64,000 nucleotides of DNA from Bacteroidia bacterium (GCA_046291695.1 JBKBSO010000009.1:1707-65706), one strand, 5' to 3'. Positions 51,011 through 64,000 are shown, counted from the first letter of the stretch. Translations and numbers: made by a program. The notes: generated from the letters alone by a model not told the origin.

Positions 51011-51922
51011 TTAGCGGCTAATCAACAACCGCTCAGTTCGTATCTGCGATTCACTTCGAAACTGCAGCAGGTACATGCCGGCTTGGAACCCTTGCAAACC
51101 CAGACTTTGGCTGCCGGGCTGCAGCTGTCCTGCAAGCAGCAAACGTCCTTGCACATCGTGCAGTTCGTAGGTCACTTCCTGTTGATTGTTGTTTTCGAGC
51201 CGCAACTCGCTTTGTGCCGGGTTGGGGAAAAAGCGCACTTGCTGCAATAACCGATTTTCGGCTACGCTGCTGGCGGTCAAAAAATCGCAAGCCACCTGCA
51301 TCAAATTCACCGACAAGGCAGCATCTTCATAACACCGAAGTCCGCCATCCCATTCGGGAATAATGGTCAACGGCTGTGGTGTGAGCAAAAATGTACTGCC
51401 TATTTTTTCGAGGTAAGGCCCATGGAAGCCGTATGGGGTAAAATTAAAATTGTTATCGACCAAGGAGGTGGTGTAAAAACTGCGTACTGTATCTCCTGCT
51501 ATGACCAATGGTACAATGGAGTCGGCCACCGCTTGCCAATGCGTTTGCGCCGGATCGAAAGCCGGGAATTCAGCAGGCACATCAAAAGTAAGGGTATCGC
51601 CTACCTGGACATTCAACATATACAAGGGCGAAAAGCGCTGCAAAGTGGTATGGTAGTAAAAAACCGTATCATTGGCTTCGTACACGTACACATCGGCCAG
51701 GTTTTGCATCCCACTCACCGCATGCCTGCTTTGCTTGATTAGGCGGCAACTTTGACCATTTATCAAGGTATCTTTGGTAACCTCATACAATCGATAGGCA
51801 CCAAAACGAGGCGTGGCACCTCCCAAAGAAGAATCGTAATACCATTTGGCACCCACAGGCGCAAAATTTTGGGCCAGGGTTGCTGTGCTACACAGCATCA
51901 GACAAAAGAAGAGGTGTTTCAT
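51011..51922 (-). CDS. T9SS-secreted protein
   Basis: Signal peptide; FAPVGAKWYY, LRCYED; FFPNPA...GMYLLQ CTD. Confidence 0.8.
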   Translation of the reverse strand: MKHLFFCLMLCSTATLAQNFAPVGAKWYYDSSLGGATPRFGAYRLYEVTKDTLINGQSCRLIKQSRHAVSGMQNLADVYVYEANDTVFYYHTTLQRFSPLYMLNVQVGDTLTFDVPAEFPAFDPAQTHWQAVADSIVPLVIAGDTVRSFYTTSLVDNNFNFTPYGFHGPYLEKIGSTFLLTPQPLTIIPEWDGGLRCYEDAALSVNLMQVACDFLTASSVAENRLLQQVRFFPNPAQSELRLENNNQQEVTYELHDVQGRLLLAGQLQPGSQSLGLQGFQAGMYLLQFRSESQIRTERLLISR

Positions 51923-52362
51923 GGTTGCAGGTTTTAGGGTTGATAACATAAATCTACATCTAACATTTTACATTAGCAAAGATGTTTGTCATGATTTTGT
52001 CAGTTTAAAATTTAATGTAGTTGACTTAAGCATTGAATAGCTGAAGTAACCGACTAGTAACCAGCGGAGTTTCTTTTTTATCGCATCCTTGGAGCCCAAC
52101 CGCAACGTCGAGGGAGGCTTCGCTGCAGGTGCCGTTAGGAGGCCTAACTGTCCTGAACATGAAGCATTGGTGCAGAAAATGGCTTTTGTACAGGTGTCAG
52201 CTAGCGCTGCGCACTGAAATTCTCGGTGACGCAGTTATGGGCAATTGAGTAGTTAGTACATCAAGTACAAATGCATATTTCCTTAACTAAACAACATTGG
52301 TTTAAGTTTGGTAATGCTCAATCCCCCCTTCGTGGCTAGTGACAAATGGTTCGATTGTGTGT

Positions 52363-59390: not shown

Positions 59391-60016
59391 TTTTGGAGTT
59401 CAGGCAAGCCCTTGCCATTTCAGATTCACCATTGGTTTTCGATTAGTATGGGGTGGAGTGGTATTTTTTGGACTCAATGAAACTAAAAGCTAGTTGCGAC
59501 CTACAGGGCAATGAGGCAAGACATCATTGAGTCATTTCCAAAAAAAATCCGCGATGCTATCAAATCCTCTAACGCCCAAATCACTGCTAGTTCTGTAGGG
59601 CTCCACGATGTGTAACGCAAAGTACCATGTTCATTCGCAGCTTGTAGAGGCACAAGTTGGGGCATCTAATTTCTGTGGAAGAACAAATATGAATTAGAAC
59701 TCGCAAGGCGCTGAGGTCATCATGTATCGAAGCGCACTCATTCGCAGGCTTCGGTAAACAGCACCCGATGCCCCCGTCCTCTTTACCGAAATTCAGCTCA
59801 GCCACCGGTTAAAGCATTGCTCCACAAAACCTTCCCCTGCGCATTTGAGCCAGTTTGAATTCCTCTTTATTAGCCAGGAAGCTTGATTTACTTAACCCGT
59901 ATTCAAAATCTGAACAACAACAGCAGGCTATTTACCTTTATCATAAAAGAAGATAACCATATCCAAATCCCTGATTTACAAAGGAATTATCTCGACACAT
60001 TAAACCTTTTTTCAAC

Positions 60017-60050
60017 TATCTTTGTTGCCTAATTCAGATTCAGTCTAATT
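60017..60050 (+). promoter_or_regulatory. suf promoter (-7 TATCTTTG) followed by candidate iron-regulator palindrome
   Basis: TATCTTTG at 60017-60024; ATTCAGATTcAGTCTAATT imperfect palindrome at 60032-60050. Confidence 0.5.
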
Positions 60051-60063
60051 ACGTACAATCAGA

Positions 60064-61512
60064 ATGAGCAATAACGAACAAGAACTACTCGACCAGGTTA
60101 CAGGAGAAGAATATAAATACGGCTTTGTCAGCAATATTGAACAAGACATCATTCCTAAAGGCCTGGATGAAGATGTAATTCGCTTCATATCAGCCAAAAA
60201 GGAAGAGCCGGAGTGGCTGCTTGAATGGCGCTTAAAAGCCTACAAGCATTGGCTGACTTTAGAAGAGCCTGGCTGGCAAAACGTGCATTATCCACCCATC
60301 GACTACCAGGACATCAGCTACTATGCCTCACCCAAGGCCGAATCGAAGCTCAACAGCCTCGATGAACTGGACCCTGAAATCAAAGCCACTTACGACAAAT
60401 TGGGCATTCCGCTCGAAGAGCAGCTGGTGCTGGCCGGTGTGGCCGTAGATGCCGTATTGGATTCAGTATCGGTGATCACCACCTTCAAAGAAAAACTCGC
60501 CGAAAAAGGGGTGATTTTCTGTGCCATCAGCGAAGCCGTGCACACCCATCCCGAACTGGTTAAAAGATACCTCGGCAGCGTAGTACCTTATACCGACAAT
60601 TATTTTGCTGCCCTGAACAGCGCTGTATTCAGCGACGGTTCATTTGTATACATTCCCAAAGGCGTGCGCTGCCCCATGGAATTAAGCACCTATTTCCGTA
60701 TCAACGCCCAGGGAACAGGGCAGTTTGAGCGCACCCTCATTGTAGCCGAAGACGAAAGTTATGTAAGTTACCTCGAAGGCTGCACAGCGCCCAAGCGCGA
60801 CGAAAATCAGCTGCATGCCGCCGTGGTAGAGCTCGTGGCCATGGAAAAGGCCGAAATCAAATATAGCACGGTACAAAACTGGTACCCAGGCGACAAAAAT
60901 GGTAAAGGCGGTATCTATAACTTTGTAACCAAGCGTGGCGTTTGCATGGGCAACTACAGCAAAATCAGCTGGACGCAGGTAGAAACCGGCTCGGCCATCA
61001 CCTGGAAATATCCCAGCGTGGTGCTTAAAGGCGACCACAGCATTGGCGAGTTTTACAGCGTGGCTGTTACCAACAATATGCAACAGGCCGATACAGGCAC
61101 CAAAATGATCCACATCGGCAAAAACACCAAAAGCCGCATTGTGAGCAAGGGTATTAGTGCAGGCAAAAGCCAAAACTCGTACCGAGGTCTGGTAAAAGTG
61201 CGCAAATCCGCTGAAAAAGCCCGGAACTTCAGTCAGTGCGACTCACTGCTCATGGGCGACAAGTGCGGCGCACACACTTTCCCCTACTTCGAAATCAACA
61301 ACAACGGCGCTACGGTAGAACACGAAGCCACCACCTCTAAAATTGGTGAAGACATCCTATTCTATTGCAACCAGCGCGGCATTAGCGAAGAAGATGCTGT
61401 AGCCCTCATTGTAAACGGCTACGCCAAAGAAGTCCTCGACATGCTGCCGATGGAGTTTGCTGTAGAAGCCAAAAAACTGTTGGCCATTTCGTTAGAAGGA
61501 TCGGTCGGCTAG
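60064..61512 (+). CDS. sufB: Fe-S cluster assembly protein SufB
   Basis: [44 protein letters not shown]. Confidence 0.97.
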
Positions 61513-61521
61513 CGCCGTCCG

Positions 61522-61544
61522 AAGGTTCAAGGTTCAAAGTTCAA
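61522..61544 (+). repeat. Left heptamer array, 3 units (A(G/A)GTTCA)
   Basis: AAGGTTCAAGGTTCAAAGTTCAA; reverse complement of the array at 62124-62186. Confidence 0.85.
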
Positions 61545-61564
61545 CCAGGCATGAAAAGTATAAA

Positions 61565-62035
61565 ATGGGGTATTTAGCTTTTGAAGATACCAAGGTATGG
61601 CAAGAAGGAAAATCGCTTGTAAAAGAGGTTTATTTGGCCATTGAAGCAAATGATTCATTTGCTCTAGACTATGCCTTGGTGAATCAAATACGCAAGTCGG
61701 CTATTTCAATCCCATCGAATATTGCCGAAGGTTTTGAAAGAGCAAGCAATAAAGAACTCATTCAGTTTCTGTTTATAGCTAAAGGGTCTTCCGGAGAACT
61801 AAGAACCCAAATTCAACTTGCACTAGAACTTGAGTATTTATCATCTGACATTGCAAACAAACTTATCGATGAAGCTAAAACTATTAGCAGAATGCTTCAA
61901 TCCTTAATTAACTATCTAAGGAATAGCGAATTGAAAGGAGTCAAATACAGTACAGTGGTCAAAGAGCCAGAAGCCAAATATTTGGCAGAACCTGTAGATG
62001 CCCAGCTGTTTATAGATGCCCAAAACGACAATTAA
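61565..62035 (+). CDS. Four helix bundle protein (TIGR02436 / 23S rRNA IVS protein family)
   Basis: FEDTKVWQ, QIRKSAISIPSNIAEGFER, FLFIAKGSSGELRTQ; AT-rich relative to the suf genes. Confidence 0.92.
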   Translation: MGYLAFEDTKVWQEGKSLVKEVYLAIEANDSFALDYALVNQIRKSAISIPSNIAEGFERASNKELIQFLFIAKGSSGELRTQIQLALELEYLSSDIANKLIDEAKTISRMLQSLINYLRNSELKGVKYSTVVKEPEAKYLAEPVDAQLFIDAQNDN

Positions 62036-62123
62036 TATTGAATATCAAACATTTTACCTCAAATATTGAGTTAGGAATCCAAGTTCTTCGAACCTACACG
62101 TCCGAGGGCGTAGACCGAGCTTT

Positions 62124-62186
62124 TTTGAACTTTGAACCTTGAACTTTGAACCTCGAACTTTGAACCTTGAACTTTGAACTTTGAAC
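62124..62186 (+). repeat. Right heptamer array, 9 units of YTTGAAC
   Basis: TTTGAAC/CTTGAAC (one CTCGAAC) x9, ending 4 nt before the sufC ATG. Confidence 0.95.
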
Positions 62187-62190
62187 TAAC

Positions 62191-62946
62191 ATGCTACACA
62201 TAAAGAACCTCCGCGCGTCGATCGACGACAAACAAATTCTCAAAGGCATTAACCTGGAAGTAAAACCCGGTGAAGTACATGCCATCATGGGCCCCAACGG
62301 TTCGGGCAAGAGTACGCTCTCGAGTGTCATAGCTGGTCGTGAAGGCTACGAATTGAGTGGCGAAGTGCTGTTCAATGGCAACAACCTGCTAGAGATGGCC
62401 CCAGAAGTACGTGCTTGGGAAGGTATTTTTCTGGCTTTTCAGTATCCTGTTGAAATTCCTGGCGTGAGCAATACCAACTTCATGCGTACCTGCATCAACG
62501 AGCAACGCAAATACAAAGGACTTCCTGATATGGATGCTAGCACCTTTTTACGCACGATGCGCGAAAAGGCCGAATTGGTGGAGCTCGATCCCAATCTGAT
62601 GAAGCGCTCGGTAAACCAAGGCTTCTCGGGCGGCGAAAAAAAGCGTAACGAAATCTTCCAACTCGCCATGTTGGAACCGAAATTGGCCATTCTCGACGAA
62701 ACCGATTCAGGCCTCGACATCGACGCCTTGCGTATTGTATCGAAAGGAGTGAATAAGCTACGTAACAAAGACAATGCCTTTGTGGTAATTACCCACTACC
62801 AGCGACTACTCGATTACATAGTACCCGATTTTGTACACGTACTCATGAACGGTCAAATTGTGAAGTCGGGCACCAAAGAACTGGCCCTTGAGCTCGAAGA
62901 AAAAGGCTACGATTGGCTGAAGGAAGAACTAAAAGCAACGGTATGA
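62191..62946 (+). CDS. sufC: Fe-S cluster assembly ATPase SufC
   Basis: MGPNGSGKST, FQYPVEIPGV, FSGGEKKRNE, LDETDSGLDIDAL. Confidence 0.97.
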   Translation: MLHIKNLRASIDDKQILKGINLEVKPGEVHAIMGPNGSGKSTLSSVIAGREGYELSGEVLFNGNNLLEMAPEVRAWEGIFLAFQYPVEIPGVSNTNFMRTCINEQRKYKGLPDMDASTFLRTMREKAELVELDPNLMKRSVNQGFSGGEKKRNEIFQLAMLEPKLAILDETDSGLDIDALRIVSKGVNKLRNKDNAFVVITHYQRLLDYIVPDFVHVLMNGQIVKSGTKELALELEEKGYDWLKEELKATV

Positions 62947-64000
62947 GCAGCATAGCCACCAGCAGTTCCCTTACCGACCGGCTTACCATTTATGCCAATC
63001 AGCTGGCCGGAGATCCGCTCGAACTGGTTCGAAGAGAAGCAGCCGGCCATTTCGCGCGACTTGGGCTGCCAAGCACCGAGCACGAAGATTGGAAATATAC
63101 CAACTTCAAAGGCCTGCATCAGCTCGATGCGCTGGCACCATTGCCCATCCTCGACGAATCGACCATCGATTTGAGTAATTACCGCATTCCGGGCATCGAT
63201 GCTTTCGAGCTGGTGTTTGTGAATGGCCGCTTTGCAGCTAGTTTGAGCAGCCGTTTCGAAAGCGAAAAAACATTCATCAGCACCTTGGCCATGGCACGAA
63301 ACCTACGCCCGGGCCTGTTGCATGAACATTTGGGTAAATATGCACAAGCCCATAACGAAGGACTTACTGCCCTCAACACCACCTTGGCCCAAGAAGGTTT
63401 TGTGGTGCACCTGACTAAAAACGAAGTAGTCGATCGTCCCGTAGTGGTGTATCACATCAGCACCGGAACCCGCGAACGCGGCTGGAATAATATGCGCAAT
63501 TTGGTGGTTGCCGAGCAAGGAAGCCAGCTCACCATTATCGAAAAATACATCAGCGAAAGTCCGATTTTCGACAATGTGGTTACCGAAGTATTGGTGGGCG
63601 AAAATGCCGAAGTTTCGCATTATAAGCTGCAAACCCGCTATGGGGATGCCTGGCATGTAGGTACCAGCCGGGTGGAGCAAGCCCGCGACAGCCGCTACTA
63701 CAACGCTACCATCAGCTGGAGCGGCGGTTTGGTACGCAACAACCTGCAAACACGCCACAACGGCAGTCAGTGCGAAACCCATTATTACGGGCTTTATTTA
63801 CTCGACCACGACAACCTCATCGACAACCACACCCTGGTTGACCACGCCATGCCACACTGCAACAGCCACGAACTGTACAAAGGAATTGTGGGCCCGGCCG
63901 GTAAAGCAGTATTTAACGGCAAGGTATTGGTGCAACCCGATGCACAAAAAACCGATGCTTACCAAAGCAATGCCAACATTTTACTGGCCGATACCGGCAC
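62943..64000 (+). CDS. sufD: Fe-S cluster assembly protein SufD (runs off window end)
   Basis: Manual translation from ATG at 62943: ...GLPSTEHEDWKYTN...VFVNGRF...DNHTLVDHAMPHCNSHELYKG...VFNGKVLVQPDAQKTDAYQ. Confidence 0.92.
   Translation, partial: MSSIATSSSLTDRLTIYANQLAGDPLELVRREAAGHFARLGLPSTEHEDWKYTNFKGLHQLDALAPLPILDESTIDLSNYRIPGIDAFELVFVNGRFAASLSSRFESEKTFISTLAMARNLRPGLLHEHLGKYAQAHNEGLTALNTTLAQEGFVVHLTKNEVVDRPVVVYHISTGTRERGWNNMRNLVVAEQGSQLTIIEKYISESPIFDNVVTEVLVGENAEVSHYKLQTRYGDAWHVGTSRVEQARDSRYYNATISWSGGLVRNNLQTRHNGSQCETHYYGLYLLDHDNLIDNHTLVDHAMPHCNSHELYKGIVGPAGKAVFNGKVLVQPDAQKTDAYQSNANILLADTG

Follow-up and report, generated by a model that had tools for sequence, protein, structure and literature searches.

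This analysis concerns a 678-bp insert between sufB and sufC in the suf operon of a Bacteroidia bacterium (GCA_046291695.1). It lies on a stretch of 64,000 nucleotides (JBKBSO010000009.1:1707-65706), called the window here, to whose first letter the positions at this locus refer. On the plus strand, sufB (60064 to 61512; NF008773 SufB, 915 bits) ends with a TAG codon at 61510 to 61512, 10 nt upstream of a left arm of 3.3 tandem heptamers (61522 to 61544; AAGGTTC or, in another register, RGTTCAA), which Tandem Repeats Finder (TRF) reports at period 7 with 93% matches. A 20-nt leader (61545 to 61564) separates this arm from the ATG of a four-helix-bundle gene of 156 aa (61565 to 62035), which scores 111.2 bits against TIGR02436 and 111.7 bits against PF05635. 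Its stop codon is followed by an 88-nt spacer (62036 to 62123) and by a right arm of 9.1 tandem heptamers (62124 to 62187; TTTGAAC or TTGAACY; TRF score 100), the reverse complement of the left arm. The ATG of sufC (62191 to 62946; TIGR01978, 354.9 bits) lies 4 nt past the right arm, and sufD, whose ATG overlaps the sufC stop codon, extends from 62943 beyond the window end at 64000 (SUFBD_core, 174 bits; SufBD_N, 82 bits). As described below, the insert is a representative of a compact, widespread cassette, a helix-bundle gene bounded by oppositely oriented arrays of the same heptamer.

The two arrays give the only period-7 rows among the 17 TRF rows for the whole window. The right array shows 85% matches when read as TTTGAAC; alternatively, it resolves into 4.5 copies of a 14-mer (93%). 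A repeat search returned 9 inverted pairs in 61400-62300, eight of which link the left array with different registers of the right one; the best spans 23 nt at 96% complementarity, with 20 perfect pairs and one G opposite T. The G+C content of the cassette open reading frame (ORF) is 37.4%, compared with 49.8% for sufB and 48.1% for sufC. The insert has the orientation of suf and is not parted from sufB or sufC by any promoter- or terminator-like site: a scan of 59400-62400 detected neither kind of site on the plus strand inside the element, the 88-nt spacer included.

No Rfam match was found in 61300-62400. Furthermore, none of 8 neighbouring ORFs scanned (drawn from 12 ORFs of at least 120 aa in 50-60 kb, with 4 overlapping ones omitted) belongs to a transposase or reverse transcriptase family, and a search of the whole genome, for which markers indicate 100% completeness, gave 0 matches to RVT_1. 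The helix-bundle gene is the sole ORF in the element, which lacks the transposase of a transposon or miniature inverted-repeat transposable element. An earlier note, made from the window alone, had described a TIGR02436-type gene bracketed by inverted heptamer arrays between sufB and sufC, a left arm able to pair perfectly over 20 nt in several registers, a right array stopping 4 nt before the sufC ATG, and no transposase or reverse transcriptase nearby. TRF and the family models bear out the first point, the eight registers the second, the array end at 62187 the third, and the neighbouring ORFs together with the genome-wide RVT_1 search the fourth.

The cassette architecture at other loci of the family

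This genome (3.17 Mb, 51 contigs) contains four matches to the family. The earlier note had proposed that its other TIGR02436 genes be checked for inverted 7-mer arrays with differing units, and indeed the other full copies are also bracketed by such arrays, each with its own unit. On contig C3, GATTTnn and nnAAATC arrays face each other in the copy at C3:831, and AATTTCA/AATTGCA and TTTTGAA/TTTGAAA arrays in the copy at C3:33827.

The second cassette (C3:622-1206, locus L003) is placed antisense between two minus-strand ORFs, with about 10 GATTTnn units flanking one end and 5 nnAAATC units the opposite end. By their end motifs, we take the two ORFs to be a sugar-nucleotide dehydratase/epimerase pair. 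The fourth match (C3:37659-37832, locus L004), truncated and interrupted by an in-frame TGA, is a decayed cassette; heptamer and small-hairpin modules come after it.

We scored all 64 matches from 41 related genomes, the best 80 of 603 wide relatives, and 33 loci on viral contigs. The wide and viral sets were collected with a 14-sequence alignment, a 39-sequence alignment being too diverse, and are biased to one subfamily. An array was counted if it had a TRF score of at least 30, a period of 5-12 and at least 2.5 copies and lay within 200 nt of the ORF. The inverted flank score is the ungapped complement score of the upstream flank versus the reverse complement of the downstream flank. As a flank measure, RNAduplex energy (200-nt flanks) did not discriminate and was dropped.

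Among the 64 copies in relatives, 44 have an array in either flank, 24 in both flanks, and 30 reach an inverted score of at least 14. For the 80 copies from many phyla, the corresponding fractions are 70/80, 36/80 and 42/80. When upstream and downstream flanks were swapped between loci, the same score was reached by only 4/384 pairs in the relatives and 7/480 in the wide set. As a further control, arrays were sought beside long ORFs of this genome: 123/2180 have one in either flank and 3/2180 in both, and an inverted score of at least 14 was found for 1/400 sampled ORFs; the suf locus scores 20. The control ORFs exclude a chance origin of the suf-locus architecture.

The arrays have a period of 7 in 128 cases, 8 in 26, 9 in 16 and another in 4. 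They lie close to the ORF (median gap 24-38 nt before the start and 10-16 nt past the stop), and the stop codon often belongs to the first array unit. Upstream arms are more often the G+T-richer ones (38 vs 16 in the wide set, 21 vs 12 in the relatives), a modest bias. The wide set covers Bacteroidota, Acidobacteriota, Nitrospirota, Omnitrophota, Methylomirabilota, Verrucomicrobiota, Planctomycetota, Cyanobacteria, Desulfobacterota, a Methylococcus and others. By eye, 8/9 full-length cyanobacterial copies inspected (a Nostoc, a Chroococcidiopsis) have such arrays, and inverted short-period arrays with their own units were likewise judged to be present at most of the 33 viral-contig loci. We conclude that a gene with inverted arrays is the rule for the family across phyla and that each cassette has its own unit, the two arms matching each other and not the arms of other cassettes.

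The cassette protein and its conservation

The cassette protein passes the cut-offs of both family models (24 bits for TIGR02436 and 33.8 bits for PF05635), and PF05635 is its only Pfam match. The domain occupies residues 7-120 and is followed by a 36-aa acidic tail. Among solved structures, its sequence matches 2gsc (from X. campestris; E 4.2e-15) and 2rld (E 0.0013), both of which were deposited with 5 chains. The protein has no bAvd, PHROG or PADLOC match, while a viral-contig copy of the family matches the PHROG "Avd protein of DGR" (diversity-generating retroelement). The family is present in 323/401 sampled genomes of the phylum, often in many copies, and at 123/126 loci the cassette ORF has a lower G+C content than the distal flanks (median -8.2 points).

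The link of the family to 23S rRNA intervening sequences (IVSs) and to Avd, as stated in the earlier note, is in print: the portions available of PMC4990558 and PMC10053308 give it, and the latter describes PF05635 as Avd-like. Avd of diversity-generating retroelements is a four-helix bundle, the fold presumed for the cassette protein, and the solved relatives are apparently pentamers (2gsc, 5 chains). It differs in having a reverse transcriptase beside it, no match to which was found in this genome, and the suf flanks are heptamer arrays.

Could the insert be a functionless relic, in which slippage-prone DNA surrounds an ORF in decay, as has been proposed for the S23p ORF of Coxiella? According to the accessible part of PMC4990558, that ORF carries deletions, and in vitro it is translated only if a ribosome binding site is added. 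In this genome, the truncated copy with the in-frame TGA (C3:37659) would fit such a history, as would the 7/64 ORFs of relatives that failed an intact-frame check. However, 57/64 are intact, and the ratio of nonsynonymous to synonymous divergence (dN/dS) of the cassette gene is 0.07 against the orthologue in the relative G001 and 0.18 and 0.18 in two further orthologous pairs. The suf-copy protein is under purifying selection. Moreover, the tandem structure and the arm complementarity persist despite saturated synonymous sites. We regard the relic explanation as very improbable.

History of the copy at the suf junction

We read 29 sufB-sufC junctions, this genome's (G000) included; one further locus did not reach sufB. 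The gene is present at 7/29 junctions: in this genome and in G001, G003, G013, G007, G040 and G037, with protein identities to the suf copy of 77%, 60%, 56%, 52%, 51% and 39%, respectively. Arrays are found at all seven. Their unit differs (RGTTCAA/TTGAACY, AATTCAA/TTGAAYT, ATTCAAA/TTTTGAA and GGTTTCA/TGAAACY; about 9 nt in G040), and the right arm mirrors the left; the arm sequences of the suf copy have changed in step.

A comparison with empty sites was suggested in the earlier note. In G004 and G002, which belong to the same genus, gene and arrays are jointly missing at the junction, as expected for one element, but G016 keeps arrays without the gene. The remaining 19 junctions are 2-81 nt long and array-free. 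No target-site duplication was seen when filled and empty suf junctions were compared, a weak comparison, because the empty sites of the closest relatives hold another hairpin. This hairpin, gene-less and made of inverted 9-mer arrays (ACGGAGGNC x3 ... CTCCGTGNN x3), occupies the sufB-sufC spacers of G004 (locus L007) and G002 (locus L009). A copy of it in this genome (C12:40660-40745) adjoins a solo heptamer array.

Between G000 and G001, the synonymous divergence (dS) reaches 1.9 in the cassette gene, compared with 1.28 in sufC. Given that these values are of the same order and that dN/dS is low, the suf copy looks old: it has probably been at the junction since before the host family diverged, inherited with the operon, kept as a protein and repeatedly lost. 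The earlier note had suggested a self-contained mobile or RNA-level element. Gene and arrays do behave as a single self-contained unit, which recurs at most family members examined; recent mobility finds no support in a suf copy that seems to be vertically inherited.

Copies in suf operons make up 19/144 loci, all co-oriented with suf. Of these, 16 lie between sufB and sufC (two identical in sequence), 2 before sufB and 1, in a verrucomicrobial genome, after sufC. Their proteins are near neutral (median isoelectric point [pI] 6.8, compared with 9.0 for the remaining proteins). In a quick tree of 128 proteins, the suf-located copies are clustered (9 changes versus a shuffled mean of 17.9; 0/500 shuffles as low) without being one clade, starred branches forcing at least 3 changes. 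The tree fits either one or several suf insertions.

Heptamer arrays beyond the cassette

Arrays of at least 3 copies number 67 at period 7 in this genome, versus 17 at period 6, 7 at period 8 and 14 at period 9. Tandem 7-nt intergenic units are thus over-represented relative to other periods, as in STRR (short tandemly repeated repetitive) sequences, the heptanucleotide repeats of heterocystous cyanobacteria. The suf-locus heptamer itself occurs at six further gene-less sites in the genome, with at least 3 perfect units each. Elsewhere in the genome, solo arrays abut gene ends.

Period-7 arrays were also counted in seven genomes, from 277-400 kb samples except for G000, which was used whole; these genomes are few, related to one another and unequal in size, which confounds the comparison. 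The array density per Mb is 21 in G000, 45 in G001, 65 in G039 and 10.8 in G030, all of which carry the gene, and 2.5 in G005, 5.0 in G006 and 7.5 in G032, which do not. Arrays of (GTTCAAR)x3 occur in 21/401 genomes of the phylum. By our reading of the two tables, all 21 carry the gene, and 0/78 gene-less genomes have such arrays.

The heptamer unit follows the protein subfamily. In the wide subfamily set, 38/106 arrays have GTTCAA-like units (at most 1 mismatch), versus 5% after letter shuffling. In the relatives, such units are found in 11/18 arrays of that subfamily, compared with 1/50 in other subfamilies.

Intergenic heptanucleotide repeats are on record: Xanthomonas GGGAATC and Nostoc GGGGA(C/T)T arrays are treated in PMC4692102, of which a part was at hand, and the TAACTGA repeats of Beggiatoaceae are a further case. 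Like the suf arrays, they are intergenic tandem heptamers. In the parts of PMC4692102 and PMC4679880 that we could draw on, such repeats are often beside start codons, inside operons and in convergent pairs, their copy number varies between close relatives, and they are over-represented in many bacteria, with no mechanism given. The Xanthomonas arrays form 70-75 convergent pairs, and the Nostoc arrays are also found inside the pec operon (both from the portion of PMC4692102 used). In the text available, the two papers name no protein partner, and S23, four-helix and intervening sequence occur 0 times. The suf arrays differ from the described repeats in bracketing a specific gene family and in a unit that follows the protein subfamily.

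These precedents raise the question of whether the suf arrays are ordinary intergenic heptanucleotide repeats which act on their neighbours, through sufC translation or transcript stability, with the gene as a passenger that is prone to settle or persist between them. The right array ending 4 nt before the sufC ATG and the solo arrays at gene ends would be in line with this. The earlier note had also entertained tuning of sufC translation by the repeats. However, the distance from the right arm to the sufC ATG varies among relatives, from 4-6 nt in G000, G001 and G037 to ~40-75 nt in G003, G013 and G007, which speaks against such tuning. Instead, the arrays hug the cassette ORF, the unit is tied to the protein subfamily, and gene and arrays are jointly missing in G004 and G002. 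The passenger explanation is therefore improbable.

Several gene-less structures accompany these arrays. Large composite foldback repeats with no gene inside are present at C24:3400-4070 and C41:185700-186070; several modules of ~77-83 nt, each with a (GACCGCA)n array, are followed by a centre and then by mirrored modules with (TGCGGTC)n. No other period-7 unit is as common in the genome as those of the GACCGCA family (39/159 rows). In G001 (L241:17870-20000 and L244:19460-19830), a conserved module of ~21 nt (GGGGTTTCGCTGCGCTCAACC and its complement) stands directly beside GTTCAAR and AATTCAA arrays, and in the same regions a gene-less inverted pair of GTTCAA arrays, spaced by ~300 nt, stops 3 nt short of a start codon.

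Cassettes nested inside genes

At five viral-contig loci, the cassette lies inside a gene (L300:79-1617, L302:1-1692, L306:1-1671, the identical L307, and L308:1-1719). The flanks of L300, L302 and L306 fit a single PglX/type IIG profile, the match breaking off at position 971 and resuming at 973. The host of L308 is a DNA polymerase III alpha-type gene, with the cassette between the NTPase and finger domains. Judging from their frames, the nested copies are apparently overlapping genes that would be read through as part of the host protein, adding roughly 130-210 aa to it. The cassette seems to be adapted to do little harm wherever it is sited.

An RNA-level reading: proposed folding and cutting of the cassette

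Our leading, though tentative, reading is that the suf insert is an IVS-type cassette in an mRNA spacer, the arms of which form a ~23-bp RNA duplex that is probably cut by RNase III. Its construction matches that of an ORF-bearing 23S rRNA IVS, but placed in the sufB-sufC spacer. This reading is suggested because the same parts occur in the same order as in the published IVS and because of the fold, the presence of RNase III and the lack of promoter- and terminator-like sites. In the predicted minimum-energy fold of 61505-62200 (-174.3 kcal/mol, z -3.5), 61522-61544 is paired with the right array over its initial 23 nt; folding in silico, as the earlier note had suggested, thus gives a 23-bp helix joining the two arrays. 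An RNase III gene is present in the genome (195 bits).

In the 23S rRNA IVSs of Coxiella, Leptospira, Xanthomonas and others, the ORF in the loop belongs to PF05635, as in the suf insert, and flanking inverted repeats form a long stem, as those at suf would. The IVS with an S23p ORF has a 28-bp terminal stem with 2-3 tandem GACAGAT heptamers at its 5' end, and RNase III cuts the stem at the start of the first repeat, the ends having been mapped by RACE (rapid amplification of cDNA ends), according to the part of PMC4990558 used here. Tandem heptamers within a stem, a predicted one in the suf insert, are thus shared with the Coxiella IVS, as far as that text goes. The host RNA differs, being rRNA (helix 25 or 45) in one case and an operon mRNA spacer in the other. 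Furthermore, the suf arms consist purely of tandem units and differ in length (3 and 9 units), and the suf ORF is under purifying selection whereas the Coxiella ORF is reported in the same partial source as decaying. RNase III excision is known for the IVS and only predicted at suf.

In the suf transcript, the arms would pair into a ~23-bp duplex that closes the cassette off as a 580-nt loop. RNase III would cut this duplex, as in the rRNA version, so that sufB, the cassette and sufCD would become separate messages. Cutting would make the insert non-polar and release the sufC start from the stem. The cassette protein may act on the arrays, as RNA or DNA; we infer this because the heptamer unit is tied to the protein subfamily.

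Seven observations weigh against this reading. First, mismatches in 88 stems show no G·U excess (158 G·U vs 162 A·C in sense RNA), whereas a selected RNA stem should favour G·U. Second, arm complementarity is kept in the C3:831 copy, although it is antisense between two minus-strand ORFs. Third, in a long-range fold test on 133 of 137 eligible loci, folds with at least 18 long-range pairs were obtained at 100/133 loci and still at 50/133 with swapped downstream flanks, a weak control because many flanks share GTTCAA-like units. Fourth, most heptamer arrays are solo: a complementary partner within 1.5 kb was found for 6/244 arrays of this genome, and such pairs comprise only the cassette loci and one composite repeat. 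Fifth, the G016 junction consists of a 68-nt spacer of TTTTGAA-type units with no gene. Sixth, the suf-copy protein is acidic (pI 4.8), with a family median pI of 8.8. Seventh, at the five nested loci, the host frame (cassette +2) is stop-free through both arrays and the inner ORF. The +2 frame has a mean of 10 stops among 159 family ORFs and zero in these five only, and a stop-free +2 frame arose in 0.3% of trials with codon-shuffled ORFs. Since the host frames are open in the nested copies, cutting is probably not obligatory for the family. In summary, an RNA mechanism is plausible, with published precedent for its analogue in rRNA, but it faces real counter-evidence.

A DNA-level alternative

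Several of the same observations could be explained by a system working on DNA. The cassette would then be the gene-bearing master copy of a foldback-type element, its protein would bind or help make the arrays, the arms would matter as a hairpin or cruciform, in template switching or in recombination, and the RNA stem would be a by-product. We consider this possible, if on the doubtful side. It can be likened to RAYT (REP-associated tyrosine transposase) genes, which lie between inverted repetitive extragenic palindromes (REPs) and have solo copies of them scattered in intergenic DNA. REP/REPIN-RAYT systems thus share with the cassette a gene between inverted short repeats and dispersed solo copies of the repeat, at six sites in the present case. 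However, RAYT is a Y1 (HUH) transposase and the cassette protein belongs to no recognisable enzyme family, and REPs are single palindromes where the cassette repeats are tandem heptamers. The terminal inverted repeats of eukaryotic foldback transposons are built from tandem short units; these elements are much larger, and no relation to the cassette is implied.

The lack of a G·U bias in the stems argues for the DNA-level explanation, as does the over-representation of period 7 genome-wide. So do the arms that stay complementary while drifting, which arm-to-arm correction could also yield, the six gene-less sites with the suf-locus unit, and the low G+C content of the cassette ORF at 123/126 loci. 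The unit following the protein subfamily fits a protein-repeat partnership that may work on DNA. Period-7 arrays are denser in gene-bearing genomes, but apart from the limits of that sample, G030 and G032 differ little at period 7. Likewise, (GTTCAAR)x3 arrays are confined to gene-bearing genomes (21/21), but with 80% of genomes gene-bearing this would arise by chance about 1 in 100 times, with kinship uncorrected. On the other side, no nuclease or recombinase family is recognisable in the protein, no target-site duplication was seen at the suf junction, and, with a synonymous divergence above 1, the suf copy seems to have been passed on vertically, so that mobility, if any, would be rare.

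Novelty and implications

The protein family, its link to rRNA intervening sequences, its likeness to Avd and the over-representation of heptanucleotide repeats were already known. Full-text searches, which covered the literature outside subscription journals and supplements, found no paper tying the family to flanking heptamer arrays outside rRNA and no report of family copies in operon spacers or reading frames. With the present results, a very common family gains a defining genomic signature.

A broader proposal, which we put forward as a rather unlikely one, is that the helix-bundle family is the missing protein partner of the intergenic heptanucleotide repeats of cyanobacteria, xanthomonads, Beggiatoaceae and Bacteroidota. 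The unit recognised would differ from one subfamily to the next; a gene flanked by its two inverted arrays would represent the autonomous form of an element, and solo arrays would either be produced by this element or serve as its targets. A single element would then occupy three kinds of host site, namely rRNA (as the IVS), operon spacers and, in frame, the interior of genes (PglX-like, DnaE-like). If so, two loose ends would meet, the very common IVS/S23p family of unknown function and the unexplained heptanucleotide repeats, and both would be testable by simple binding and RNA-end mapping. The idea of an intervening sequence would widen from rRNA to operon spacers and reading frames. The cassette is also relevant to gene calling, to assembly and to the question of how conserved operons tolerate inserts.

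Additional observations

Four sequencing runs, all of DNA, were found to contain sequence of 60900-62700; one of them has an identical contig and may be the source of the window. The arrays break short-read assemblies. In a relative from another study, the contigs end at 61544, in the left array, and resume at 62155, inside the right array. The cassette ORF has no cover at 85% likeness in that relative, and we draw no conclusion from this. In the relative G039, one cassette (C18:111656-111979, locus L038) lies directly 3' of what is, by appearance only, the 3' end of a tRNA gene (GGTTCGAATCC... motif upstream). A neighbouring minus-strand ORF in the window (51011-51949) has a C-terminal sorting domain of type IX secretion (Por_Secre_tail, 38 bits), consistent with a Bacteroidota host.

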